Assembly: GCA_018701255.1 (NCBI GenBank)
Contig: JABIWM010000080.1
Span: forward strand, 1-59,622
Length of the DNA: 59,622 nucleotides
Origin: Alphaproteobacteria bacterium
GTDB lineage: Bacteria; Pseudomonadota; Alphaproteobacteria; Puniceispirillales; UBA1172
Reading direction: 5' to 3'
How positions within the stretch are numbered: the first letter of the stretch is position 1; each line of letters begins with the position of its first letter. The translations under genes were made by a program, and so were the position numbers. Shown piece after piece: positions 1,856-45,147 of this stretch. Below the pieces are notes generated by a model, which saw only the letters and a list, made by a program, of their open reading frames with translations, was not told the DNA's origin and ran no database searches.

Positions 1856-2242
1856 ATGAAAACTGTCATCGGTGAGCCGTTAGTTATTGACGGACGGACA
1901 TTGTCTTTATCACGCGCCATCAGAGCAGGTGATTTTGTCTATTTGACTGGCCAGATTCCTATGCAGGATGGGGCGGTCATGACTCACGGCACAATAGAAG
2001 ACCAGACCCGTGTTGTTCTGGATGCTATCACCGAAACGCTGCATCTGGCTGATTGCGAATTACCGGATGTGGTAAAAGCGATGGTATGGTTGCGTGATCG
2101 TGCCGATTTTCCGGGATTTGATGCTGTTTATGCCGATTATTTTCCGCAAGACCCGCCCGCACGTTCCGCTGTGATTAGTGAGCTATTGGTCGATGTCCGG
2201 GTTGAGGTTGAGGTTGTTGCCTATCGGCCGCTACCGGCTTGA
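1856..2242 (+). CDS. RidA/YjgF/UK114-family enamine/imine deaminase
   Basis: ORF 1820..2242 opens with GTG. The ATG at 1856 (MKTVIGEP...) has GAGG 5 nt upstream. Size (~128 aa) and the ...GDFVYLTGQIP...ARSAV...VEVEVVA pattern are typical of RidA. Confidence 0.8.
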   Translation: MKTVIGEPLVIDGRTLSLSRAIRAGDFVYLTGQIPMQDGAVMTHGTIEDQTRVVLDAITETLHLADCELPDVVKAMVWLRDRADFPGFDAVYADYFPQDPPARSAVISELLVDVRVEVEVVAYRPLPA

Positions 2243-2254
2243 CGGTATCATAGC

Positions 2255-3064
2255 ATGACAATATTCAACTCAAATGGCACTTCAAACGGCACATATTATC
2301 AGCTGACTGGCAGTGGTAAATCGACCATTATTCTTATCCACGGGTTAGGGCTGAACCACCAGATGTGGCAACATCAGACCCCCGCGCTTGCCGCATATGG
2401 TCAGGTGCTATGTTATGATCTTTATGGGCATGGTCAATCCTCGCCGCCGCCTGAAAAACCCGGCCTGAGCATGTTTTCCCGTCAATTGGCAGAATTAATG
2501 GATGCGCTGAATATAGAGCAGGCAACGATTATGGGATTTTCGCTTGGCGGCATGATTGTTCGCCGCTTTGCCATGGATTATCCGGATAGAGCCGAAACCA
2601 TTGCTATCCTGCATTCCCCGCATCAGCGCACGCAAGCCGCCCATGATCATATTCAGAATAGAGTGTATCAGGCGCAAAAAGACGGCCCCGATGCAACGGT
2701 CGAAGACGCGCTTATCCGCTGGTTTACTGATGCCTTTCGCGCCAATGATCCACATACGCTGAATCAGATCAGACAATGGGTAAAAGCAAACGACAAAAAT
2801 ATCTATCCGGATATCTATCAGGTGCTGGTTAGCGGCGTGGATGAACTGGTCGCGCCTGAACCGCCCATATCCTGTCCGGCGCTAGTCATGACAGGTGACG
2901 AAGATTATGGCAATAATGCCGATATGAGCGCCGCCATTGCCGCCGAAATACCCAATGCCCGGCTTACCATTCTAAAAGGATTGCGGCATATGGCCATGAT
3001 GGAAGACCCCGACCGGTTTAATCAGGTACTGGTCGATTTTCTGGCCACACATCATTCTATTTAA
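2255..3064 (+). CDS. alpha/beta-fold hydrolase
   Basis: HG oxyanion motif (ILIHGLGLN) and nucleophile elbow GFSLGG. Length is 269 aa. It lies 12 nt downstream of the RidA gene, so it is probably in the same operon. Confidence 0.8.
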   Translation: MTIFNSNGTSNGTYYQLTGSGKSTIILIHGLGLNHQMWQHQTPALAAYGQVLCYDLYGHGQSSPPPEKPGLSMFSRQLAELMDALNIEQATIMGFSLGGMIVRRFAMDYPDRAETIAILHSPHQRTQAAHDHIQNRVYQAQKDGPDATVEDALIRWFTDAFRANDPHTLNQIRQWVKANDKNIYPDIYQVLVSGVDELVAPEPPISCPALVMTGDEDYGNNADMSAAIAAEIPNARLTILKGLRHMAMMEDPDRFNQVLVDFLATHHSI

Positions 3065-3108
3065 TCACCGAATCTTACAAGCCTAACAAAGGAAAAGGAG
3101 ATCACATC

Positions 3109-3711
3109 ATGGAACCACAAATCAGAAAAATTGTGACTTACAAAGAAATCATCACATCTGATGGCGGCAAAGAAGCAGAACAGCCGCTGGTGCTGTTCGG
3201 TGCCGCCGCCGTCATAAAAAACCCATGGGCAGGCCGTGGTTTTGTTGAAGATTTAATGCCGGAAATCAGAGTATTTGGCCCTAAAATGGGACAAATCCTG
3301 ACGGATCAAATGCTAGAACTTGGCGGTGGTGGCGATACTATCGAAGCGCTTGGGAAAGCATCCATGGTTGGGCTGGACGGTGAGCTGGAACATGCTTCGG
3401 CGATTATCCATACCGTTAATTATGGTAATGTTCTGCGTAAAGCTGTTGGCGGCACGGCCTATCTGGGCTTTACCAGCACAAGAGGCCCCGGCAATACCCA
3501 GCTTAATATTCCGCTTATGGATAAAAATGATACTGGCCGGCGGTCGCATTATCTGACGGTTCAGATGCATATTCATGATGCACCGGCTGATCAGGAATTG
3601 ATTGTTGCTTTTGGCGGGTCAACTGGCGGCCGTCCCCATCACCGCATTGGTGATCGGTATTCTGATCTGGCCGCGATAGGGGCTGATCTGGATAATCCGG
3701 CTGGCGTTTAA
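3109..3711 (+). CDS. 'amino acid synthesis' family protein (PF06684/DUF1185-like), paralog 1
   Basis: 200 aa with the signatures IRK...NPWAGR..EDL...GKA..G.DGELEH...IPL...RSH...GGRPHHRIG. These are shared with ORF 9307..9888. GGAGA lies upstream of the ATG. Confidence 0.6.
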   Translation: MEPQIRKIVTYKEIITSDGGKEAEQPLVLFGAAAVIKNPWAGRGFVEDLMPEIRVFGPKMGQILTDQMLELGGGGDTIEALGKASMVGLDGELEHASAIIHTVNYGNVLRKAVGGTAYLGFTSTRGPGNTQLNIPLMDKNDTGRRSHYLTVQMHIHDAPADQELIVAFGGSTGGRPHHRIGDRYSDLAAIGADLDNPAGV

Positions 3712-3731
3712 ACCGCAATATTGTAATCATT

Positions 3732-3761
3732 CAGCAGGGCGGAGAGATTTTTGCTCTGCTG
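3732..3761 (+). terminator. possible intrinsic terminator hairpin between convergent genes
   Basis: CAGCAGGGC (3732-3740) pairs with GCTCTGCTG (3753-3761) with one mismatch. ATTTTCT follows on the + strand. The U-tract is weak. Confidence 0.25.
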
Positions 3762-3791
3762 ATTTTCTGGCTCGATTAGCTTGGCTTTATT

Positions 3792-5234
3792 TTATCGGAC
3801 GGATGCGGTCAATTTAGCCAGATCAGGTAATGGCCGCATGGTTTCCGGATGCGATGCCAGCACCTGTTCAATCGCCAGACCAATGGCTAGTAATTTGCGA
3901 TCTGTCCCCGGCGCGCCTAGCAACTGAATCCCAAACGGCATGCCGTCCTGATCAACACCACATGGCACCACCAGCGAACATGCCATCACCATTGTTGGCG
4001 CATAGCTGAGCGCAAGCCATGTCATATATGTTGGCAATTTTACCTGATCAATCGTATCAATATATTTCGTTGTTTTCGCAAATGGCGCAACAGATGCCGC
4101 CGGACAGATCACAACATCCACCTCATCAAATAGCGATAACCATGCTCTGGCCAGAATTGTTTGCGTATGTGAGGCATCTGCCACATCAGCAAGCGTATAG
4201 GTCAGCGCCCTATCCACATTATCAACCACTAACGGGCTGATCACATCACGATGCGTATCGACATAATCCTTGAGGCCGGCAACATAACTAACCCCTCGCA
4301 AAATCTCAAAGCAGTCATGGATATTATCAAAAACCGGATCACGCCGCTGGCATTCTTTGAACGATGCGGCCAGATGCCCAACCCGTTGATCAAACAAGCC
4401 GCGTATCACATTCGCAACCGGTGCTACCCCCAAATCAGTGGAAATCGCAGCGGTCATCTGGCTTAAATCTGCTGGATCAAGCGATGCCGGCATATCCCCA
4501 CGCGCCGTATGTGAAAACGGATCACGCGGATCAACCGATGATTGCGCGTGTAATAACAATATGGCATCAGAAACATGTCTGGCCATAGGGCCCAGCACGG
4601 GAAATGGCGCCAGCCCAACCGCTTTATCAACATCTGGAACACAGCCGGGGCTAGGCCGGAAACCGACAATGCCGCAAAAACTGGCCGGTGTTCGTAAGCT
4701 ACCGCCAAAATCCGACCCTGACGCTAGCGGCACCATGCCCGCGGCCAGTGCGGCGGCTGACCCACCTGATGAGCCAGATGGCGTTTTATCAGTATCAAAC
4801 GGATTGGCGGATATGCCAAAAACATCATTCCATGTATTGCCGCCCGTGCCATGTTCCGGGGTGTTTGTTTTGCCAATAACAATACCGCCAGCTGATTTTA
4901 CCTTAGCCACCGACAAATCATCCTGATCAGGAATATGATCCTTGAACGGCAGAGCGCCATAGGTTGTTTTGATACCGGCAGTGGCTTCTAAATCCTTGAT
5001 GCCGACTGGTAATCCGGCTAATGCCCCGATATCTTCGTTTTTAAGACATCGGGCTTCGGCATCCCTAGCGCTATCCATAGCGCGGTCAAAATCCCGCGTG
5101 ACCATAGCATTTAACGCCGTATCAACCGCTTCAATCCGGTTGATTGATGCTTCCATTACTTCAACAGGTGAAAAATCACCTTTTTTAATACCTGCAACCA
5201 GCGCGGTTGCTGTCATATTGCAAAAATCTGTCAT
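3792..5234 (-). CDS. amidase-signature (AS) family amidase
   Basis: 480 aa with GSSGGSAAALAAG and GSDFGGSLRTPASFCG, the Ser-cisSer-Lys signature region. Confidence 0.9.
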   Translation of the reverse strand: MTDFCNMTATALVAGIKKGDFSPVEVMEASINRIEAVDTALNAMVTRDFDRAMDSARDAEARCLKNEDIGALAGLPVGIKDLEATAGIKTTYGALPFKDHIPDQDDLSVAKVKSAGGIVIGKTNTPEHGTGGNTWNDVFGISANPFDTDKTPSGSSGGSAAALAAGMVPLASGSDFGGSLRTPASFCGIVGFRPSPGCVPDVDKAVGLAPFPVLGPMARHVSDAILLLHAQSSVDPRDPFSHTARGDMPASLDPADLSQMTAAISTDLGVAPVANVIRGLFDQRVGHLAASFKECQRRDPVFDNIHDCFEILRGVSYVAGLKDYVDTHRDVISPLVVDNVDRALTYTLADVADASHTQTILARAWLSLFDEVDVVICPAASVAPFAKTTKYIDTIDQVKLPTYMTWLALSYAPTMVMACSLVVPCGVDQDGMPFGIQLLGAPGTDRKLLAIGLAIEQVLASHPETMRPLPDLAKLTASVR

Positions 5235-35509: not shown

Positions 35510-37456
35510 ATGTCAGACCATCACCAGTTTCCACCATCCGCTGAGCGGGCAAAATCAGCACTAGTTGATCAAGATACCTATCTGGATATGTATCAGCGTT
35601 CTATCGAACAGCCAGATGCGTTCTGGGATGAAATGGGGCGGGCGCAAATTGACTGGATGAAGCCTTACACAAAAATCAATAATTCCACCTATGATGCGAC
35701 ATCCCTATCTATTAAATGGTACGAGGACGGCACACTTAATGCCAGCGCCAATTGTCTGGACAGGCATCTGGATACACGCGGTGATCAGACCGCGCTGATA
35801 TTCGAAGGCGATGATCCATCCACTAGCCGCCATATCAGCTATCGGGAATTACATGATGAGGTTTGCCGTTTTGCCAATGTACTAAAAGCGCGTGGCGTTA
35901 AGGCCGGCGACCGTGTCACCATTTATATGCCCATGATCGTAGAAGCCGTGGTAGCCATGCTAGCGGTCGTTCGCATTGGCGCCGTGCATTCGGTTGTCTT
36001 TGGCGGATTTTCGCCTGATGCGCTGGCTGGCCGTATTCAAGATTGTGATTCGCATGTCATCATTACCGCCGATGAAGGCGTTCGCGGCGGTAAACCCATC
36101 CCACTAAAAACCAATACAGATAAAGCGCTTGAAATGTGCCCGGATTGTCAGACTGTTATCGTGGTCAAACGTACCGGCGGAAACATTGATTGGCATGATG
36201 GCCGGGATTTCTGGTATCACGAAGAAATGGCCAAAGTCGATGCGGATTGCCCCCCTGCAGAGGTTGGCGCCGAAGACCCGATGTTCATTCTGTATACGTC
36301 CGGATCAACCGGCAAACCCAAAGGCGTGTTACATACCACCGGCGGATATATGGTTTATGCCAGTATGACATTCAAATATGTTTTTGATTACCAACCGGGC
36401 GATGTGTATTGGTGTACCGCTGATGTTGGCTGGGTCACCGGCCATAGTTATATTGTTTATGGGCCATTAGCCACCGGCGCGACCGGCGTCATATTTGAGG
36501 GCGTGCCAACCTATCCGGATGCTGGCCGATTCTGGGAAGTGATTGAAAAGCACAAGGTAAACACATTCTATACCGCCCCGACCGCTATTCGTGCGCTGAT
36601 GCGTGAAGGCAATGATTTTGTCACCCGCTATGATCGTTCATCGCTCAAAACACTGGGGTCGGTTGGCGAGCCTATCAATCCCGAAGCATGGATGTGGTAT
36701 CATGACGTTATCGGTGAAGGCCGTTGCCCGATTGTTGATACATGGTGGCAAACCGAAACAGGCGGTATTATGATCACGCCGCTTCCGGGCGCAACAACCC
36801 TGAAACCCGGTTCAGCTACCAGACCATTTTTCGGCATTGAGCCTGTTCTGGTTGATAGCGATAACAAACCGCTAGATGGTGCTACTTCGGGTAGTTTATG
36901 TATCAACCGGTCATGGCCGGGACAGATGCGGACAGTATATGGGGATCATGACCGCTTTATCAGCACCTATTTTACCACTTTCCCCGGACGATATTTCACC
37001 GGTGATGGCTGTCGCCGTGATGAAGACGGATATTACTGGATCACCGGACGTGTTGATGATGTGATTAATGTATCTGGCCATCGCATGGGAACAGCTGAGG
37101 TCGAATCCGCGCTGGTTGCCCATCCTAAAGTCGCTGAAGCCGCTGTGGTTGGATATCCGCATGATATCAAAGGTCAGGGGATTTATGCTTATGTTACTTT
37201 GCTAGCCGGACTAGAAGGCGATGATGCGCTTCTGGCTGAGCTCAAGCAATGGGTGCGCAAAGATATTGGCCCGATTGCTACACCCGATGTGCTGCAATGG
37301 GCACCCGGACTGCCGAAAACACGATCTGGCAAGATTATGCGGCGTATTCTGCGTAAAATTGCCTCAAATGAAATCGACAGTCTTGGTGATACATCCACCC
37401 TGGCAGACCCTGCCGTGGTGGATGATCTGGTAGCTAATCGCCCAATCGGCAATTAA
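35510..37456 (+). CDS. acs: acetyl-CoA synthetase (AMP-forming)
   Basis: 648 aa with [20 protein letters not shown] and [13 protein letters not shown]. Confidence 0.95.
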
Positions 37457-38103
37457 CTTTTGGATGCTTCTTGTGTCAAACCTAACTCAATGGCTCTACA
37501 CACGGCATGAGTGCGATTTTTAGCACCCAGTTTACCGCGCAAGCTTTTGAGATGGTGCTTCACCGTGACTAGTGCAATGCCGTATTTAATGGCAATTTCC
37601 TTATCGGATTTACCAGCTAGCAAGCCTGATAACATATCCAGTTCACGGCCAGTCAGATCATTTATCGGCAAGAAATGTTTTTCACCATTATGATGGCTGG
37701 TTTCTTGCGGCATAAATATCTGGCCTTCTATCATAAGTATGAGGGCACTGAAAAAAGCCTTAATACCTATATTTTTGGGAATATATCCCATAGCACCTGC
37801 TTCTAGCACCATTCGCATTTCCGAATTACTTGTCGGCGCACCCATGATAGCAATCGGGACTTCCCTTCGGGTGGCTTCTAATGTGCGTGTTAAACCTGCC
37901 AATCCTTTGATATCAGATAAGCCTGAATCCAGAATGATCAACGCGGGGCTGACCCCGCGATTAATGAGAGCTGTTACCTCGCTGATCCTGTTAGCTGGTA
38001 ATATTTCCATCGTTTCATCACGTTGTTGCGATTCTTCTATGATTAAATCACGAGAAAACACATTTGCGTAAGCGAGTATTATTTCCACATTGCTCTCCAT
38101 CAT
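37453..38103 (-). CDS. LuxR/FixJ-type response-regulator-like transcription factor with an atypical receiver domain
   Basis: The C-terminal LuxR HTH reads [22 protein letters not shown]...[15 protein letters not shown]. The N-terminal receiver keeps the ILD aspartate and the GYIPK lysine but has YA where the acidic DD pair normally sits. No kinase gene is adjacent. Confidence 0.75.
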
Positions 38104-38167
38104 TTCGTTAAGACGATATGCTGATTTTCGGGAAAAAATACTGCCGAAACTCTATAATGTATCAACA

Positions 38168-38187
38168 TTGAGTATTATAATACTCAA
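38168..38187. promoter_or_regulatory. perfect 20-bp palindrome upstream of the LuxR-type gene
   Basis: TTGAGTATTATAATACTCAA equals its own reverse complement. It lies 65-84 nt upstream of the ATG at 38103 and 38 nt downstream of the preceding stop. A TATAAT is embedded on both strands. Confidence 0.55.
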
Positions 38188-38224
38188 ATTCTAGATCAGA
38201 TGAATTATTTTTTTTGGCAGACAA

Positions 38225-39598
38225 TTACCGTTTCGCATTATTCAATTGATAGCGAACGACAAAATTCCACTTTTGGCTTTCATCTAAAACGTCTTTTGAC
38301 CGCGTGTTTTCCCAGCCTAGCTCTAGGGTTAGGGCATATTTGTCTAGCCAATCCGGTGAAAATCCCAATTTACTCGTAACGTGCCATAAGTTATGCCGAT
38401 GAAGTCGCCAAGGACGCGGATGGATAAGGCTTTCTTTGGTCAAATTTAGCTGAATCCACAATTTTTCTTTCGCATTTGGCGGTATCAGATGCACCAAACC
38501 GGTTATCCCTAGACGATCCGAGCTTTGATCACGCGGCGATGTTATCCGTTTGGCCGTTGATATTTCCGCATACCAGCTGTTCCACCAAGTGTGTGTTCTA
38601 TTCGCCCCAACTATCGTTGGATTGATCATTGGATTAGTTTGATGATAACCAAATGCGATGCCCTGATCCTGAAGCGTCTGATCTGGCTGGCGTGGATAGG
38701 TTTCAAATGAACCCTGCATGGTCATGCGCAGATAGGCGATATCGGATAAAGGCAATATCATCGCCTGACTAGCACTGGATTGATGCCTGATCACGGATAC
38801 GCGATTCTGGCCACGCTGATTTTCCAGCCGTTTTAATAATATCTGGCTTTCCAGTATCGCCCAGCTAGTCTGATGTTGCCAGCTTCCGCTTATCCCGATC
38901 CCCTGACGGTCATATCCGCGTGGGGTGGTAAGCCGTTCATATAACAACAGACTGGCCCGATAGTTCCCCTGTTTACGCGGGATAACAAATCCAATACTGG
39001 CATTGGTTTCTGCATACCATCCAGCCACATGACGATCACCAATCGTAAAATCGGGGCTAATGCTTATGCCGCTCAAATTCGATTCGATTTGCCGGATCAT
39101 CAGATCAAGCTGTGATTCCGGTTCTGCCGTGATGGTTTGTTGCGCGGTCGCTTGCGCCAGATTCTGATCATATCCAGTGCTTATATCTATCGCCCATTTC
39201 AGATTAGGGTGACGCGAACATTGCCGCAAAAACCGTTTGCTGTCTTGTGCTAGCCAATCGGTTTTATCGCCATTTTCATCAACAGATAACTGCCGTAAAT
39301 ACGGTTTGGCCAGATCACAACGCCCCATGGCAACATGTATCAGCGCCAGTTCATAAAGGTGACGGCGCGACAATACCCGCGACCGTTCCGCATCCAGCCC
39401 TAATGCCATGGCCTCATCATAGAATCCGTCTAATCTTAATATGATTAGCGATTTAGTTAACAGATCATCATCCCGAAGGATCAGATTCCTGTTCGAGTGA
39501 ATGAATTGTTTTGAAGATATATCATTATCTGCCAGACTTGCTGATACTGATAATGCGAACATACCAATCAAAATGGTGATAGAGAACAAAGACGGCAT
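38225..39598 (-). CDS. outer-membrane protein: signal peptide + TPR-like region + C-terminal beta-barrel (Slam/DUF560-like or YaiO-like)
   Basis: The start is at ATG 39598 (MPSLFSITILIGMFALSVSASLA signal). The N-terminal third is helical and TPR-like (YELALIHVAMGRCDLAKPYLRQL). The C-terminal ~280 aa has alternating hydrophobic/aromatic beta-strand periodicity, ending ...WNFVVRYQLNNAKR. Confidence 0.4.
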   Translation of the reverse strand: MPSLFSITILIGMFALSVSASLADNDISSKQFIHSNRNLILRDDDLLTKSLIILRLDGFYDEAMALGLDAERSRVLSRRHLYELALIHVAMGRCDLAKPYLRQLSVDENGDKTDWLAQDSKRFLRQCSRHPNLKWAIDISTGYDQNLAQATAQQTITAEPESQLDLMIRQIESNLSGISISPDFTIGDRHVAGWYAETNASIGFVIPRKQGNYRASLLLYERLTTPRGYDRQGIGISGSWQHQTSWAILESQILLKRLENQRGQNRVSVIRHQSSASQAMILPLSDIAYLRMTMQGSFETYPRQPDQTLQDQGIAFGYHQTNPMINPTIVGANRTHTWWNSWYAEISTAKRITSPRDQSSDRLGITGLVHLIPPNAKEKLWIQLNLTKESLIHPRPWRLHRHNLWHVTSKLGFSPDWLDKYALTLELGWENTRSKDVLDESQKWNFVVRYQLNNAKR

Positions 39599-39782
39599 GC
39601 AAACAGCATGACATAGCAATCATTAACAAAAACTTAACAGAATGAAGAAAAATGATCATTCCTATCGCATATCGTTAAAACGTTTTGTTCATACCCATCA
39701 TGATCAATTCTGCGGTTTCGCCTTTTCTATGCCCATCATTCATGCGGTATCCTAATCCGGCATAAAATTCGGTGTTTTCTGA

Positions 39783-41834
39783 TCATAAATGTTTCATCAT
39801 CACATCCACGCGACTTTCTCTATCATTTAGATTCAGATCAGCATGGGCGTGACTGTAATGCGTCTTCCCTGTCCCCACATCAATCTGTGACGGCAGTTGA
39901 AATTGTATCTGTCCGGATTGAACCGCTGGCGGCAATAACAGATCAAGATGCAGTCGGGTAACATGGCTAATATCGAATGTCGCACCAAGACGAAACGCAT
40001 TATACTGATATTGTCCTGACGTGATCAGACTATGGGTTTTCGGGTTTAGGCGAGTCTGGCCTATCATGGCTTCGGCGGCTAGTGTCACCATTTCATATTG
40101 CTGTCTGATACCGGCAAACCCCCATAGCGATGCGGATGCGGTATCAAATGCGCCTTTCGCATAACCATCAGCCCATCCTTGTTGATGATCAAACCCCAAC
40201 CCCATCCAGCGTTGGGTGTTCTGGTGATACTGGCTGATCACCCCATGAACAACAGACCGGTTTTTGCCCTGACTAAAAAAGATTTGCTGACGGGTATCGC
40301 TGCCAATATGTTCATAACCAACCCAGTTACCATCAGATGAATAGCTGGGATCGGTTAGACGTGCGGGCAGATATGCCGATAACGGGATGCTACCCTGTTC
40401 AGCAAATCGAAAGCCGGATTGCGCCAGATGCTCCCCATCTCTCGCCTTAATCACATTATACCCTGTTGCATAGCGTAAAGGTGAGGGCAGAATATATGTA
40501 TCAAGTGCCAGCACAAAGGCCGCATTATCAAAACTGTCACGAACAATAATGGATTGATCAGCCAGAGCATGACGAACAGAACCGCCCAGAACATTAGGCG
40601 TGACAAGCACCGATTGTTTCAATGGCATTTTCACATATGATGTTGTTTCTATACTTGTCGCACCAATGGGATCAAGCGCATCTGGCAGATTGATCAATCC
40701 CTGACCGAATACATTCGCCATCTGGGCTTCGGTGCAGGTTGCTATGGTGCATCCATCCGCCGTCACCAGACCATCATAATTAGCGGTTGCCAGCAAACGG
40801 GCGGCGGCTTGCCGTGGCGTCATCCCCGGAAACTGTTCCAGTAATAGCGCAATAGAACCGGATACAAACGGCGCCGCCATGGATGTGCCGGATTTACGCG
40901 AATACTGATCATCCGGTATCGCCGCATATATGCCGCCGGAATATTGATCATCACCGCCCCCCGGTGCCGTAATGCACCATGCTTGCGCGACCCCACACCG
41001 GTTTGTATAACGCGGCTCTCGCAGGTTATTATCGGCGGCAACAACCGTTAACCAGTTTTGTCTCAAATCCGGATAGTGATAGGGAAGCCCGCTGCGGATA
41101 GATACCTGATCATCGCTATCATTTCCTGCCGCCCAGACCATAATAGGGCCATTGACTTGCGCCAGTTGAAAATAGCTTTGCAATTCCTGACGCAAAATCT
41201 GATCAAGGGTTGATTTGGGAATATCGTTAATTTCATAAATCGATGCCCATGAATTATTGATTACCGGCAACCCTCTGCTTCGGGCATTGCCCAGAATGGC
41301 TGGCACCATATCATTACCGGATTGGCTTCCGAACCTTCCTTCTGCGTTTAATATCCGGTAACTGACCAGATCAGCATAAGGCGCAACCCCGTGAATGCCG
41401 CGCTGATTGCGTGCCGCCGCAATAATACTGGCGACATGCGTGCCATGCCCGAACGGATCAGTCACTCCTTGGGTATCACCCTGCCAGTCACCGCCGCCAG
41501 AAACGCGGCCATCCAGTTCTTCGTGATCACCATCAATGCCGCTATCCAGCACCCCGACAGATATGCCAGAGCCGGATAAACCGGTCGCGTAAAATGGCGT
41601 TAACCCCATTTCCCGTAATGTTGGTGTATCCACATATTCTGTTGCAGATGCATCAAAATCGGGCACCGCTGGATCAGCAATGAATGGTCTGATTTGCGGT
41701 AATGTTCCGCTTTTGGTATCGGTTGTAACGGTAAAGCTACTGCCACCGCCGCCGCCGCCGCCACAAGCCGTTAATGCTGTGCTGGCTAAAAGGATAACCA
41801 TATATAAAGACTTTTTCGGAAAAACATTCAACAT
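39783..41834 (-). CDS. subtilisin-like (S8) serine protease lipoprotein with a poly-Gly tether and a ~280-aa C-terminal domain of unknown fold
   Basis: The ATG at 41834 has AGGTGG upstream. Lipobox LTAC followed by GGGGGGGSS. Catalytic triad motifs VLDSGID, HGTHVASIIAA and GTSMAAPFVSGS. The C-terminal part is rich in beta-strand-like alternation. Confidence 0.8.
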   Translation of the reverse strand: MLNVFPKKSLYMVILLASTALTACGGGGGGGSSFTVTTDTKSGTLPQIRPFIADPAVPDFDASATEYVDTPTLREMGLTPFYATGLSGSGISVGVLDSGIDGDHEELDGRVSGGGDWQGDTQGVTDPFGHGTHVASIIAAARNQRGIHGVAPYADLVSYRILNAEGRFGSQSGNDMVPAILGNARSRGLPVINNSWASIYEINDIPKSTLDQILRQELQSYFQLAQVNGPIMVWAAGNDSDDQVSIRSGLPYHYPDLRQNWLTVVAADNNLREPRYTNRCGVAQAWCITAPGGGDDQYSGGIYAAIPDDQYSRKSGTSMAAPFVSGSIALLLEQFPGMTPRQAAARLLATANYDGLVTADGCTIATCTEAQMANVFGQGLINLPDALDPIGATSIETTSYVKMPLKQSVLVTPNVLGGSVRHALADQSIIVRDSFDNAAFVLALDTYILPSPLRYATGYNVIKARDGEHLAQSGFRFAEQGSIPLSAYLPARLTDPSYSSDGNWVGYEHIGSDTRQQIFFSQGKNRSVVHGVISQYHQNTQRWMGLGFDHQQGWADGYAKGAFDTASASLWGFAGIRQQYEMVTLAAEAMIGQTRLNPKTHSLITSGQYQYNAFRLGATFDISHVTRLHLDLLLPPAVQSGQIQFQLPSQIDVGTGKTHYSHAHADLNLNDRESRVDVMMKHL
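41746..41762 (-). repeat. (GGC)5 trinucleotide repeat encoding the poly-Gly tether
   Basis: The + strand reads CCGCCGCCGCCGCCGCC. It is in frame within the protease gene, directly after the lipobox Cys codon. Confidence 0.8.
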
Positions 41835-42022
41835 CTGCACCACCTAAACTATCCAAAAAGGGTATTATCGGTAACAGATGCCGCCTTTCATATGATGCAA
41901 AGGCAGGAATACGCCGGACGGAAAGTATCAGTGATACCCCTAGCGAATGGTAAAATATGATTGCGATAGCTGAAAACCGCCGTCAGCCGCTCCACAGCCG
42001 GCCTATCACGGCCTATGACGGC

Positions 42023-43213
42023 TTAACTGTTTATAGCGGCGTATCCGGTCATGATATCATCAATCAGATCATCGGCATGCTCAAGCCCCACAGACAGGCG
42101 GATATGACCATCCTTAATGCCAAGCAATGCCCTGTCTTTTTCATCCAGATTGCTGTGGGTTGTGGTAAAGGGATGACAGATCAGTGATTTTGCATCCCCC
42201 AGATTATTTGAGATATCAATAATGTTTAAGCTATCCAGAAAGCGGAAACACGCGGCTTGGCCGCCGGGTAATTCCATTGCAATAATATTCCCGCCATGGC
42301 GCATTTGTTTTCTGGCCAGATCATATTGCGGATGGCTTTCCAGCCACGGATAGCGGATTATGATATCCGGACAATGCTGGGTGATATATCTGGCAACATG
42401 GTCGGCGTTTGCCACCATCCGGTCAACCCGTAAGGACAGGCTTTCCAGTGATTTGAGCAAAACCCACGCATTAAACGGGCTGATCGATGGCCCTGTGCGG
42501 CAAAGAAATTTAAAAATCTGCTCATCAACCAGTTCTGATTTCCCAAGAATAGCACCGCCAAGCACCCGCCCATGACCATCAATATGTTTGGTCGCCGAAT
42601 AAACCACCAGATCAACGCCATATTCAATAGGTTTCTGGCCAAGAGGCGTGGCAAAGACATTGTCAACCACCATCAAGGCACCCGCCTGATGCGCCAATGC
42701 TGTCACAAGTTCCAGATCAACCAGTTCAAGCAGAGGATTAGATGGCGTTTCCACAAACACCATTTGCGCCGGCCGTGATAAGGCATCTTCCCACGCGGTC
42801 ATATCGGTGCCGTCAACCAGTTCGGTTTCAATGCCCCATTGTGGCAGAATCTGGGTTAAAATAGCATGGCACGCCCCGAATAGCGCGCGGCTGGCAACAA
42901 CCCGATCACCTGATTTTAACAAACTGGCCATAGTCGCAAATACTGCCGCCATGCCAGATGCGGTCATGCGGCAGGATTCCGCGCCTTCTAGCAACGCCAT
43001 GCGTTCCTGTAACATGGTAACGGTGGGGTTGCCGTAACGGGAATAAACAAACCGGTCTAAATCACCACTGAACGAATCGGCGGCTTCTTGTGCCGAGCTA
43101 TAAACATAACCTGATGTCAGATATAATGCTTCTGCTGTTTCATCAAATTGAGAACGGTTCAGCCCGCCGCGTACCGCCAGCGTATCCGGATGATAGGATT
43201 TGTTTTTACTCAT
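42023..43213 (-). CDS. metZ: O-succinylhomoserine sulfhydrylase (Cys/Met-metabolism PLP enzyme)
   Basis: 396 aa with the PLP-lysine motif YSATKHIDGHG. Overall it matches the MetZ-type pattern common in alphaproteobacteria. Confidence 0.8.
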   Translation of the reverse strand: MSKNKSYHPDTLAVRGGLNRSQFDETAEALYLTSGYVYSSAQEAADSFSGDLDRFVYSRYGNPTVTMLQERMALLEGAESCRMTASGMAAVFATMASLLKSGDRVVASRALFGACHAILTQILPQWGIETELVDGTDMTAWEDALSRPAQMVFVETPSNPLLELVDLELVTALAHQAGALMVVDNVFATPLGQKPIEYGVDLVVYSATKHIDGHGRVLGGAILGKSELVDEQIFKFLCRTGPSISPFNAWVLLKSLESLSLRVDRMVANADHVARYITQHCPDIIIRYPWLESHPQYDLARKQMRHGGNIIAMELPGGQAACFRFLDSLNIIDISNNLGDAKSLICHPFTTTHSNLDEKDRALLGIKDGHIRLSVGLEHADDLIDDIMTGYAAINS

Positions 43214-43249
43214 GCCCGCGTTCTATTTTTAATTTGAAGACACCTATGC

Positions 43250-43792
43250 TTAGGGTCTTGGGGCATGTTTTGCAAGGATTCTTTGTAACGTCCGGCGGTG
43301 CAGCTTAAGCCGTCTGGCAGTTTCGGAAACATTGCGTCCACATTGCTCATAGACACGCTGGATATGTTCCCACCGCACCCGATCCGCCGACATCGGGTCT
43401 TCGGGTGGGGGCGGCATGGCTTCGCCTTTTTGCAGTAACGCCGCAACAATAGCATCCGGATCAGCAGGTTTGGGCAGATAGTCAACAGCCCCGGCTTTCA
43501 CCGCTGAAACGGCCGTGGCTATATTGCCAAATCCGGTTAGCATAACGACACGGCAATCTGGCTGATTGTCTTTGAGTATCTGGACAATATCCAGACCACT
43601 GCCTTGTTCCAGTTTCAGATCAAGAATGGCATGAGTGAACTGTTCTGCCTTGATACAATCACGGGCATCCGGAATACAGGACGCTATGGTGACAACAAAA
43701 CCCTTGCGCTCCATGACACGCGCCAATCGGCCTAGCAAGGATTCGTCATCATCAACGATCAGCAATTTATGTTCAGTTTTGTGCATCATCAT
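43250..43792 (-). CDS. regA: RegA/PrrA/ActR-family redox response regulator
   Basis: LLIVDDDESLL receiver plus the almost invariant C-terminal HTH NVSETARRLKLHRRTLQRILAK. Three consecutive ATGs (43792, 43789, 43786) follow AGGAAA. Confidence 0.9.
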   Translation of the reverse strand: MMMHKTEHKLLIVDDDESLLGRLARVMERKGFVVTIASCIPDARDCIKAEQFTHAILDLKLEQGSGLDIVQILKDNQPDCRVVMLTGFGNIATAVSAVKAGAVDYLPKPADPDAIVAALLQKGEAMPPPPEDPMSADRVRWEHIQRVYEQCGRNVSETARRLKLHRRTLQRILAKHAPRP

Positions 43793-43845
43793 TTTCCTAT
43801 TGCTTTTATATAGGTGCAAAAATCTCAAACACAAGGTAGGCCGGA

Positions 43846-45147
43846 TTAATCCTTATATCGCACATCAATCTCGGCGCGCGGCAGAATAAAGGTGATTTCC
43901 GCCCCGCCTTCTTTCACATTTCTGGCAACCAGCTGACCGCCCATCCCCTCAATCATGGTCGTTGCAATAAATAATCCTAGCCCCATATGCCCATCCACGC
44001 CTTTACGCGACGAATTATACGGCTCACCAAGCCGGTTGAGTACCGCGCTAACAAATCCGGGGCCATCATCGATTATCTGGATAATCAGATGTTTTTTATC
44101 CCAGCCAACCGCGATATTAACCTTATTTTTGGCAAATTGCGCGGCGTTATCAATCATCATTTCAAGGCTATGGATAATATCCGGCCGCCGCCCCAGAATA
44201 GGCGTTTCACCAATAAGCGTATCCATTGTCTGCAAATGGATCATATCACGGATATCTGCGAATCGATCATCAATCAACCCCTGAACCAACGCCAGCGCCG
44301 CCGCGGGATCATGGCTCATCTGATCAATTTGATTAGCATCTTCGCTTAACCCGGCCAGAATCATCCGGCAGCGTTCTGTTTCCACTTTCAATGCCTTTAT
44401 TTCATTGGCCAATGTGGGGTAATCCGCTTTTTCATCCAGCAATTCTGCCAGCTCATGGGTGATTAGGGTAATCGTATTTAACGGCGATCCTAATTTATGG
44501 GCGGCCACGGTAGCAAGGCTTCCTAATGATACCATTTGCTGTTCCCGCGCCATATTAAACCGCGCATCGGAAAGCCCGCGCAGAACATGCCGGGCATGGC
44601 TAGTCAGTAGCCCGGTATAAATGCCAATAAATCCAACAGCAAAAACAATAGCAACCCATAACCCGACCAGATATAGCCACGGCCATTCCGGTGACGCATC
44701 CGGCCATGGCAAGGGAATATGATAAATAGAAAGCAGGCTGGCCAGAAATGCTACCATCAGAATGAGCGCAATCGTATAGCGCATGGATAAAAGCGATGCC
44801 GATACCGCCACCGGTGCCAGCAAGAGCAAGGCAAATGGATTGGTCAGCCCGCCAGTTAAAAACAGCAATCCAAACAGCTGAAGCGTATCAAATCCAAGCA
44901 GAAAAAATGCTTCGTAATTATTGATGCGATTCCGCAATCGGCTAAACAGATAATGCCAGACACCAACAACAGCTGAAACCATTATGATTAGCAACAGCCA
45001 GAAAATGGGAATGTCAAAATCAAGTGCCAGATATATGATCATGACTGTCAGCAACTGACCGCCTAGTGCAATCCAGCGCACCATAGCCAGCTGGCCACTA
45101 TCAATCAGATCATTAATCTGGAGAAAGGCATAATCCTGATGCGGCAA
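43846..45147 (-). CDS. regB: RegB/PrrB/ActS-family redox sensor histidine kinase
   Basis: Six N-terminal TM helices with the quinone-site heptapeptide GGLTNPF, the H-box AAHKLGSPLNTI, and the conserved redox Cys in ETERCRMILAGL. Confidence 0.9.
   Translation of the reverse strand: MPHQDYAFLQINDLIDSGQLAMVRWIALGGQLLTVMIIYLALDFDIPIFWLLLIIMVSAVVGVWHYLFSRLRNRINNYEAFFLLGFDTLQLFGLLFLTGGLTNPFALLLLAPVAVSASLLSMRYTIALILMVAFLASLLSIYHIPLPWPDASPEWPWLYLVGLWVAIVFAVGFIGIYTGLLTSHARHVLRGLSDARFNMAREQQMVSLGSLATVAAHKLGSPLNTITLITHELAELLDEKADYPTLANEIKALKVETERCRMILAGLSEDANQIDQMSHDPAAALALVQGLIDDRFADIRDMIHLQTMDTLIGETPILGRRPDIIHSLEMMIDNAAQFAKNKVNIAVGWDKKHLIIQIIDDGPGFVSAVLNRLGEPYNSSRKGVDGHMGLGLFIATTMIEGMGGQLVARNVKEGGAEITFILPRAEIDVRYKD

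Follow-up and report, generated by a model that had tools for sequence, protein, structure and literature searches.

How would a lipid-anchored, glycine-tethered protease reach the surface of a free-living marine alphaproteobacterium, and is the putative outer-membrane protein encoded next to it the machine that takes it there? The question is raised by three minus-strand open reading frames (ORFs) that lie between acs (35510–37456, plus strand) and metZ (42023–43213, minus strand) on contig JABIWM010000080.1 of the metagenome-assembled genome (MAG) GCA_018701255.1, the whole of which, 59,622 nt, is the window analyzed here. The relatives of the window are genomes of Candidatus Puniceispirillales (SAR116). 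A previous interpretation made from the DNA letters alone, here called the sequence-only reading, described these ORFs correctly as a subtilisin-family (S8) protease lipoprotein (gene 1), a predicted outer-membrane protein (gene 2) and a LuxR-type regulator (gene 3), and proposed that they form an inserted module in which gene 2 is a translocon of the Slam type, that is, of the type 11 secretion system (T11SS), exporting the protease. We find that this envelope locus has been passed on vertically within the SAR116/Puniceispirillales lineage and is not an inserted island, and that gene 2 is not a dedicated exporter of the protease. The best explanation overall, to which we give about an even chance of being right, is a vertically inherited locus that combines a lipoprotein protease resembling NalP and SphB1, a divergent Slam-like neighbor and a regulator linked to acs.

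Gene 2 (38225–39598, minus strand; 457 aa from ATG) has the architecture originally assigned to it, as judged from the ORF, a structural model and profile comparison: a signal peptide with predicted cleavage after ...SASLA, a TPR region at approximately 39212–39514 and a barrel at approximately 38228–39202. The profile of the family matches consensus TPR proteins with E=4.7e-8, and Pfam TPR_16 matches 6 of the 27 members, with TPR_19 and TPR_12 found in smaller numbers. In the AlphaFold model, helices spanning residues 36–136, with a predicted local distance difference test (pLDDT) score of 75–90, are followed by 14 long strands at 140–458, along with two strands of four residues each. The last helices of the TPR region contain two cysteines, C101 and C134 (window approximately 39218–39319), that are invariant in all 27 members and absent from the T11SS reference proteins, and that likely form a periplasmic disulfide.

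Gene 2 belongs to a small family that database searches barely reach. Searches of Pfam, NCBIfam and PDB sequences with gene 2 gave no match, nor did tblastn against plasmids, and a set of 5.8 billion clustered proteins yielded only 9 homologs. From 1.84 billion representatives, a HMMER profile retrieved nothing more than the 25 clusters of its own family, none of which leads to DUF560, and NCBI names the family "hypothetical protein." The proposed relationship to Slam was examined through profile–profile alignment. The references were 11 marine cluster-3 T11SS (DUF560) outer-membrane proteins from the supplement of PMC12282271, represented by the first ~400 aa of each. With hhalign, the 27-member gene 2 alignment matched the T11SS proteins with a probability of 85.7% (P=5.4e-6) over 315 collinear columns that run from the TPR domain through the junction into the barrel, and adding 8 more divergent members raised the probability to 95.4% (P=1.9e-8, score 69.7, 316 columns). 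At the junction, the gene 2 motif R-x-P-x-L-x-W...G-Y-D-x-N-L-A aligns with R-N-P-W...P-S-S-N-V-N-N-G of the T11SS proteins. When all columns were shuffled, the score fell to 9–17.6; shuffling the TPR only left 51–61 (~230–270 columns), and shuffling the barrel only left 29. Controls with other families scored 16.7 for the protease barrel, 16.2 for E. coli autotransporter barrels and 13.7–16.3 for PgaA. A barrel-only alignment cut at the junction motif gave a weak score of 25, and region-wise shuffling was preferred to it as a control.

Several observations weigh against this assignment. The reference sequences cover only about the first 400 aa of the T11SS proteins, and the gene 2 model is of low confidence, with a mean pLDDT of 60. 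Foldseek searches with that model returned generic TPR-barrel and porin matches with TM-scores of at most 0.25, which we consider uninformative because of the low pLDDT. The Pfam model SlipAM/DUF560 (PF04575) found no match at E<=1 in gene 2 and the 27 members, nor at E<=10 in 6 more divergent ones; on the genuine T11SS references, at ~400 aa each, the same model itself matched only 2 of 11, with an E no better than 0.1. The proposal that gene 2 is Slam-like is thus borne out by hhalign and finds no counterpart in Pfam.

Compared with known members of the group (Slam1/2 of N. meningitidis, NilB/HrpB of X. nematophila and marine cluster-3 proteins such as SPO1271 of Ruegeria pomeroyi), gene 2 shares the signal peptide, the N-terminal TPR, a barrel of ~14 predicted strands, a similar length (457 aa vs 447–479 aa), the collinear profile match over both domains and, as the sequence-only reading had pointed out, an adjoining gene for a Gly-tethered lipoprotein. 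It differs from them in lying below the detection level of SlipAM, in its two invariant TPR cysteines, in its confinement to a narrow marine alphaproteobacterial lineage, in having a neighbor without a recognizable TbpB-like 8-stranded barrel, and in being kept after that lipoprotein is lost. From these sequence comparisons we conclude that gene 2 appears to be a very divergent outer-membrane protein of the Slam/T11SS type, with membership proper and the strand count both provisional.

The same data bear on a different identity for gene 2, that of a TPR-plus-barrel porin for exopolysaccharide export, of the PgaA, BcsC or PelB kind, or of a YaiO-like barrel, the latter having been the alternative offered from the sequence alone. 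The top Foldseek matches of the gene 2 model are indeed BcsC, PelBC and the BcsC barrel, with E-values from 2e-6 to 7e-5, but the TM-scores are only 0.18–0.25 and were obtained on the model with a mean pLDDT of 60. The PgaA alignments mentioned above, made with the E. coli protein, were not significant in a comparison of low power, single T11SS sequences themselves scoring only 18–27 against the gene 2 profile; Pfam BCSC_C, PgaA-barrel and YaiO gave no match at E<=1 in the 27 members; the model predicts about 14 long strands and not the 16 of such porins; and synthase or glycosyltransferase genes occur in none of the loci. We regard an export porin or YaiO-like barrel as very improbable.

Gene 1 (39783–41834, minus strand) encodes 683 aa from an ATG preceded by AGGTGG, with the reading frame open further, to a GTG at 41843, and is closed by a stop codon that is premature, as described below; precisely this 683-aa product is recorded for the contig in the NCBI collection. 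The lipoprotein signal peptide, the lipobox L-T-A-C and the glycine tether occupy 41742–41834 and can be read directly: the lipobox Cys codon is at 41763–41765, followed by seven glycines (41742–41762) and Ser-Ser, so that the mature N-terminus predicted earlier, Cys-Gly7-Ser-Ser, is exact. Cys24 and the glycines after it are at least 90% conserved in an alignment of 68 relatives. The glycines are encoded by (GGC)5-GGT-GGC, and the tract ranges from G4 to G13 among the orthologs in loci L001–L011; it is G8 in a MAG that is 99.7% identical (L025) vs G7 here. Such length differences in a trinucleotide repeat suggest that in-frame slippage varies the tether.

The subtilase identity of gene 1 was likewise called correctly. 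The catalytic domain (40761–41573, residues 91–361) matches Pfam Peptidase_S8 with E=2.5e-49, its Asp/His/Ser triad is intact, and the columns of D98, H131/H134 and S319 are invariant in the 68 relatives. The protease model resembles subtilisins with a TM-score of up to 0.90. Among NCBIfam models, that of the autotransporter serine peptidase EprS matches best, limited to the protease domain and below the cut-off. Hundreds of proteins of the gene 1 kind, lipid-anchored subtilases with a predicted barrel, were found in marine Alphaproteobacteria. The small beta domain that separates the subtilase domain from the barrel contains an almost invariant motif, D-S-F-D-G-A-x-F (window approximately 40517–40540; residues ~433–440 of the protease and 434–441 of ortholog P0035), which is kept in all 68 family members, including those of Paracoccaceae.

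What follows the protease domain was modeled on an intact ortholog, P0035, which is 93% identical to gene 1; the AlphaFold model, built from 68 sequences, has a mean pLDDT of 87. It comprises the subtilase fold, a small beta domain (394–480), a confident coil (480–504) and 12 strands at 505–718, as assigned by DSSP. The corresponding C-terminal domain of the window copy, at 39678–40325, is interrupted by the premature TGA. The domain is ~215 aa long, its strands are 16–26 residues long, and DSSP divides them into 4 short strands, a break of 13 residues and 8 further strands. The family C-termini carry a terminal Phe in 65 of 68 members, and hydrophobic residues at positions −5 (67/68), −7 (65/68) and −3 (46/68). 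Such a canonical beta-signal for the β-barrel assembly machinery (BAM), taken together with the 12 predicted strands, makes the domain look like an integral outer-membrane barrel in the layout of NalP and SphB1. Furthermore, in members of the SAR116 type, the strands conserve their polar face better than their hydrophobic one (entropy 1.87 vs 2.50). A membrane barrel whose lumen is conserved should show this pattern; a soluble barrel, in which the core is conserved, should not.

NalP and SphB1 are the documented lipoprotein subtilase autotransporters (PMC7857515, PMC5472700, PMC13421274). Gene 1 shares with NalP of N. meningitidis and SphB1 of B. pertussis the lipobox and the S8 passenger with its triad, its protease domain is closest to autotransporter peptidases, as in the EprS match, and its family shares a predicted C-terminal outer-membrane barrel of 12 strands and the aromatic beta-signal. 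It differs in size, the intact form being much shorter at 719 aa than the ~1,040–1,080 aa of NalP and SphB1, as well as in coming from free-living marine Alphaproteobacteria and, in the window, in being truncated by a nonsense codon.

The likeness is further qualified by results that speak against an autotransporter barrel. The Pfam Autotransporter model (PF03797) and the NCBIfam barrel models (TIGR01414) match none of the 68 members, profiles of the C-terminal domain made from 6 and from 24 sequences match no PDB sequence, autotransporter barrels included, and hhalign against the barrels of Ag43, YfaL and YpjA of E. coli K-12 scores 15.3, in a comparison of low power with few references. No α-helical pore linker is predicted, residues 472–504 being a confident coil (pLDDT 77–87). 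Finally, the 12 strands could be 4 + 8, that is, a pedestal and an 8-stranded barrel, and the 13-residue break in the model fits this division. In the C-terminal domain, a weak, sub-threshold match to Porin_4 (E=1.4e-4) was detected, and in Foldseek with the full-length model, the matches listed were taken up by subtilisins and so concern the protease part. By sequence, then, the predicted barrel belongs to no annotated family.

The 4 + 8 division leads to the full type 11 alternative, in which the protease would be a classical Slam/T11SS cargo, with an S8 effector, a 4-strand pedestal and an 8-strand barrel, and gene 2 its dedicated translocon. The strand pattern with its 13-residue break equals the published layout of such cargo, a four-stranded pedestal followed by an eight-stranded barrel (PMC12282271). 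The protease also has a C-G-G... Gly-rich lipoprotein linker of low complexity like that of published cluster-3 cargo, an N-terminal effector and a beta-rich C-terminus as in TbpB, fHbp, hemophilin and SPO1272, and it lacks an autotransporter signature and a pore helix; gene 2 appears to be a remote homolog of T11SS outer-membrane proteins, and in many genomes genes 1 and 2 lie close together on one strand. Against this, the C-terminal domain shows no sequence or profile similarity to cargo: hhalign against 10 T11SS cargo proteins scores only 13.3, which is not significant, and Pfam TbpB_B_D and FHBP_C are found in none of the 68 members, yet give weak matches in genuine cargo. The terminal-Phe ending of 65 of the 68 relatives occurs in 0 of the 10 cargo proteins, so that the protease family ends in a Phe beta-signal and not in the G-G-F-I-L-Y-R type of ending. 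The strands are longer than those of cargo, and their length and conserved polar face fit a membrane barrel. On the strength of the beta-signal and the conservation pattern, a 12-stranded membrane barrel is the better reading than 4 + 8, and the suggestion that the protease C-terminus is a Slam-cargo targeting barrel is not upheld. We consider the full type 11 arrangement unlikely, also in view of the distribution of the two genes, which is given below.

The barrel is not complete in the window. At codon 684 of gene 1 (39783–39785), alignment and codon comparison show an in-frame TGA where orthologs have TGG (Trp): the 91%-identical ortholog in L006 reads ...MMKHLWSENT..., with TGG at this codon, and all orthologs run 35 residues past that Trp, to ...KTF. 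Downstream of the TGA, translation and alignment with the orthologs reveal an intact in-frame remnant of 35 codons (SENTEFYAGLGYRMNDGHRKGETAELIMMGMNKTF), at 39675–39782 with the original TAA (codons 39678–39782), which ends ...GMNKTF before the TAA. The window ORF therefore stops 36 codons (Trp + 35) short of the family C-terminus. Because of this in-frame TGA, the remark that the protease does not end like a classical autotransporter applies to the window ORF and fails for the family, with its terminal Phe. In the same way, the spacing of 184 nt to gene 2 is correct when measured from the TGA to the gene 2 ATG, but since the TGA is premature and the codons downstream are intact, the true gap is 76 nt, from the original TAA.

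A second, independent MAG, GCA_029242265.1 (L025), carries the same TGA and an identical remnant. Across 4.5 kb it is 99.67% identical to the window and differs by 12 mismatches and, within the Gly tract, one indel of 3 nt, which argues that the allele is real and recent. Reading of the TGA as Trp or selenocysteine was considered and is ruled out: TGA is an ordinary stop in the window, where it ends 13 of 29 long ORFs, the protease gene in L009 is interrupted by TAG instead, and the residue at this position in the orthologs is Trp and not Cys. The change from TGG to TGA is thus a nonsense allele rather than recoding. It deprives the barrel of its last two strands and of the C-terminal insertion signal, and the truncated protease of the window is probably defective and not assembled. 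The allele probably represents a recent loss of function, which fits the repeated loss and disruption of the protease in related lineages: the TAG in L009 is at codon 458, and in L033 the gene is split into two ORFs (2044–4235). Gene 2 is intact while the protease is repeatedly disrupted. This pattern is in keeping with repeated loss, among streamlined marine bacteria, of a protease at the cell surface. As a separate observation, the proteins P0162, P0163 and P0168 are 348-aa protease proteins that start at MANVFGQGL and are candidate disruptions.

The relationship between the two genes can be addressed through their distribution. The order protease, gene 2, regulator and convergent acs is kept across Puniceispirillales, including the cultured isolate LSUCC0684, in which the trio is intact as XDZ65531, XDZ65530 and XDZ65529, and members with proteins that are only 20–40% identical. 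Because the same gene order is conserved across Ca. Puniceispirillales genomes, the locus is not an insertion, contrary to the sequence-only reading. Recent horizontal insertion is ruled out by this order-wide synteny together with a base composition that is ordinary except for AT-rich intergenic dips. In every context retrieved, gene 2 lies directly downstream of the protease, except in lineages that lack the protease. Such cases include L004, where genes 2 and 3 are kept and metZ abuts gene 2, and a sister lineage (L027, L028, L029 and L031), where the protease is absent and an SCO1-like gene precedes the gene-2-like ORF. Conversely, protease homologs of Paracoccaceae stand alone, with no gene 2 as a neighbor, from which it follows that the protease needs no adjacent gene 2. 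Because gene 2 is kept where the protease is absent, and some protease homologs have no gene 2 neighbor, gene 2 is not an exporter dedicated to the protease; the same two facts count against the full type 11 arrangement.

Is gene 2 then unrelated to the protease? It might work with gene 3 and/or acs, or have an independent role in the envelope, the protease being a facultative neighbor that is gained and lost. The unit of a gene-2-like ORF, response regulator and convergent acs exists without the protease in L004, L027, L028, L029 and L031, and gene 2 stays intact where the protease is disrupted. Moreover, all co-occurrence of gene 2 with the protease falls within one vertically related clade, and this is a point against functional coupling generally, since co-occurrence in a single vertical lineage could reflect inherited synteny. 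On the other side, no known role ties a TPR-barrel outer-membrane protein to acetate activation, and the only detectable relatives of gene 2 are translocons of lipoproteins or proteins. Across the loci, gene 2 evolves fast (32–90% identity), like the protease (55–91%) and unlike the regulator (85–98%), and the gaps of 58–76 nt between protease and gene 2 suggest co-transcription. A gene 2 with no connection to the protease therefore seems to us rather improbable.

For the explanation that we prefer, a NalP/SphB1-like lipoprotein protease beside a divergent Slam-like protein, the following course may be envisaged. The protease would be exported through Sec and lipidated, after which BAM would insert its barrel into the outer membrane, and it would be displayed at the cell surface, held by the lipid and the flexible Gly tether. 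Gene 2 might help lipoproteins to arrive at the outer leaflet or to be flipped onto it. Its most obvious client would be the protease with its lipidated N-terminus, and because gene 2 is maintained where the protease is absent, it would have to have other clients or another role as well. A more specific form of cooperation is a hybrid of types 5 and 11, in which the protease inserts itself through BAM and gene 2 moves the Gly-tethered lipid anchor to the outer leaflet; we regard this as an attractive but doubtful proposition. The proximity of the two genes may have a parallel in Neisseria: with NMB1971 taken as Slam2 of N. meningitidis, a lipid-anchored subtilase autotransporter may be encoded just two genes away from a Slam there too. 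In N. meningitidis MC58, nalP is NMB1969 (PMC5953494), and a homolog of NMB1971 lies upstream of hpuA (PMC3783016).

Gene 3 (37453–38103, minus strand) is, as had been recognized, an atypical regulator with a receiver domain and a LuxR/GerE helix-turn-helix. Its likely start is the GTG at 38088 (211 aa), with a range of 211–216 aa for the ORF. Pfam GerE (51.9 bits, E=5.8e-14) and Response_reg (35.4 bits) both match above their cut-offs. In the receiver, D59 and K110 are kept, and the acidic pair is missing, replaced by Y-A-N in 10 of 10 orthologs. No kinase gene adjoins gene 3 in the window. Gene 3 converges on acs, the two ORFs overlapping by 4 nt (37453–37456), and the pairing reaches far past the lineage with the protease (loci L027–L035, L040, L042, L046 and L079), including lineages from which the protease is absent. 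Given that its conserved synteny partner is acs, gene 3 probably does not serve the protease as a dedicated regulator and is probably not part of a module with it, and its inclusion in the protease module is not sustained.

The conserved association with acs hints, by analogy, that gene 3 may be tied to acetate metabolism. The LuxR-type regulators CrbR and ErdR activate acs in Vibrio and Pseudomonas (PMC5436829, PMC5715377). Gene 3 shares with CrbR/ErdR, and with NarL/FixJ LuxR regulators, the receiver and GerE domains and the conserved association with acs; it differs in lacking the acidic Mg-binding pair and an adjacent kinase and in being convergent with acs instead of upstream of it. With the NCBIfam ErdR model NF041830 it reaches 43.8 bits against a cut-off of 390, and being so far below that cut-off, the link between acs and the regulator is a lead only.

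Beyond the three genes, the surrounding housekeeping order is strongly conserved across the order. On one side it reads gyrB, sensor kinase, response regulator (RegB/RegA-like) and metZ, with metZ and the RegA/RegB-like pair at 42023–45147 and upstream in the window, as compared in loci L001–L004; on the other side it reads acs, recX, ABC2 permease, dcd, argD, argF and hslO. In two metagenome contigs, L042 (5650–6183) and L079 (2115–3335), the gene-2-like ORF and the regulator gene have been joined by a deletion, the 5' part of the former running into the 3' part of the latter, so that both genes are degraded in those genomes.

To conclude, T11SS (Slam) proteins have been cataloged through the DUF560 Pfam model, which the gene 2 family escapes; this family appears to be a distant Slam member, conserved in SAR116-type bacteria, which are abundant marine heterotrophs, and has as its fixed neighbor a lipid-anchored subtilase whose own predicted outer-membrane barrel lacks annotation. 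If genes 1 and 2 cooperate, they would define a new class of T11SS cargo, an enzyme with a membrane barrel. Should the hybrid of types 5 and 11 be true, it would provide a mechanism for the unexplained step in which the anchor of lipidated autotransporters such as NalP and SphB1 reaches the surface, and would bring type 11 secretion into oligotrophs that are free-living and abundant in the sea. The cultured isolate LSUCC0684, with its intact trio, makes these ideas testable. In addition, the repeated nonsense, split and deletion alleles suggest frequent loss of the surface protease in these streamlined genomes, which is relevant to the way in which the cost of degrading protein outside the cell is shared among marine bacteria.

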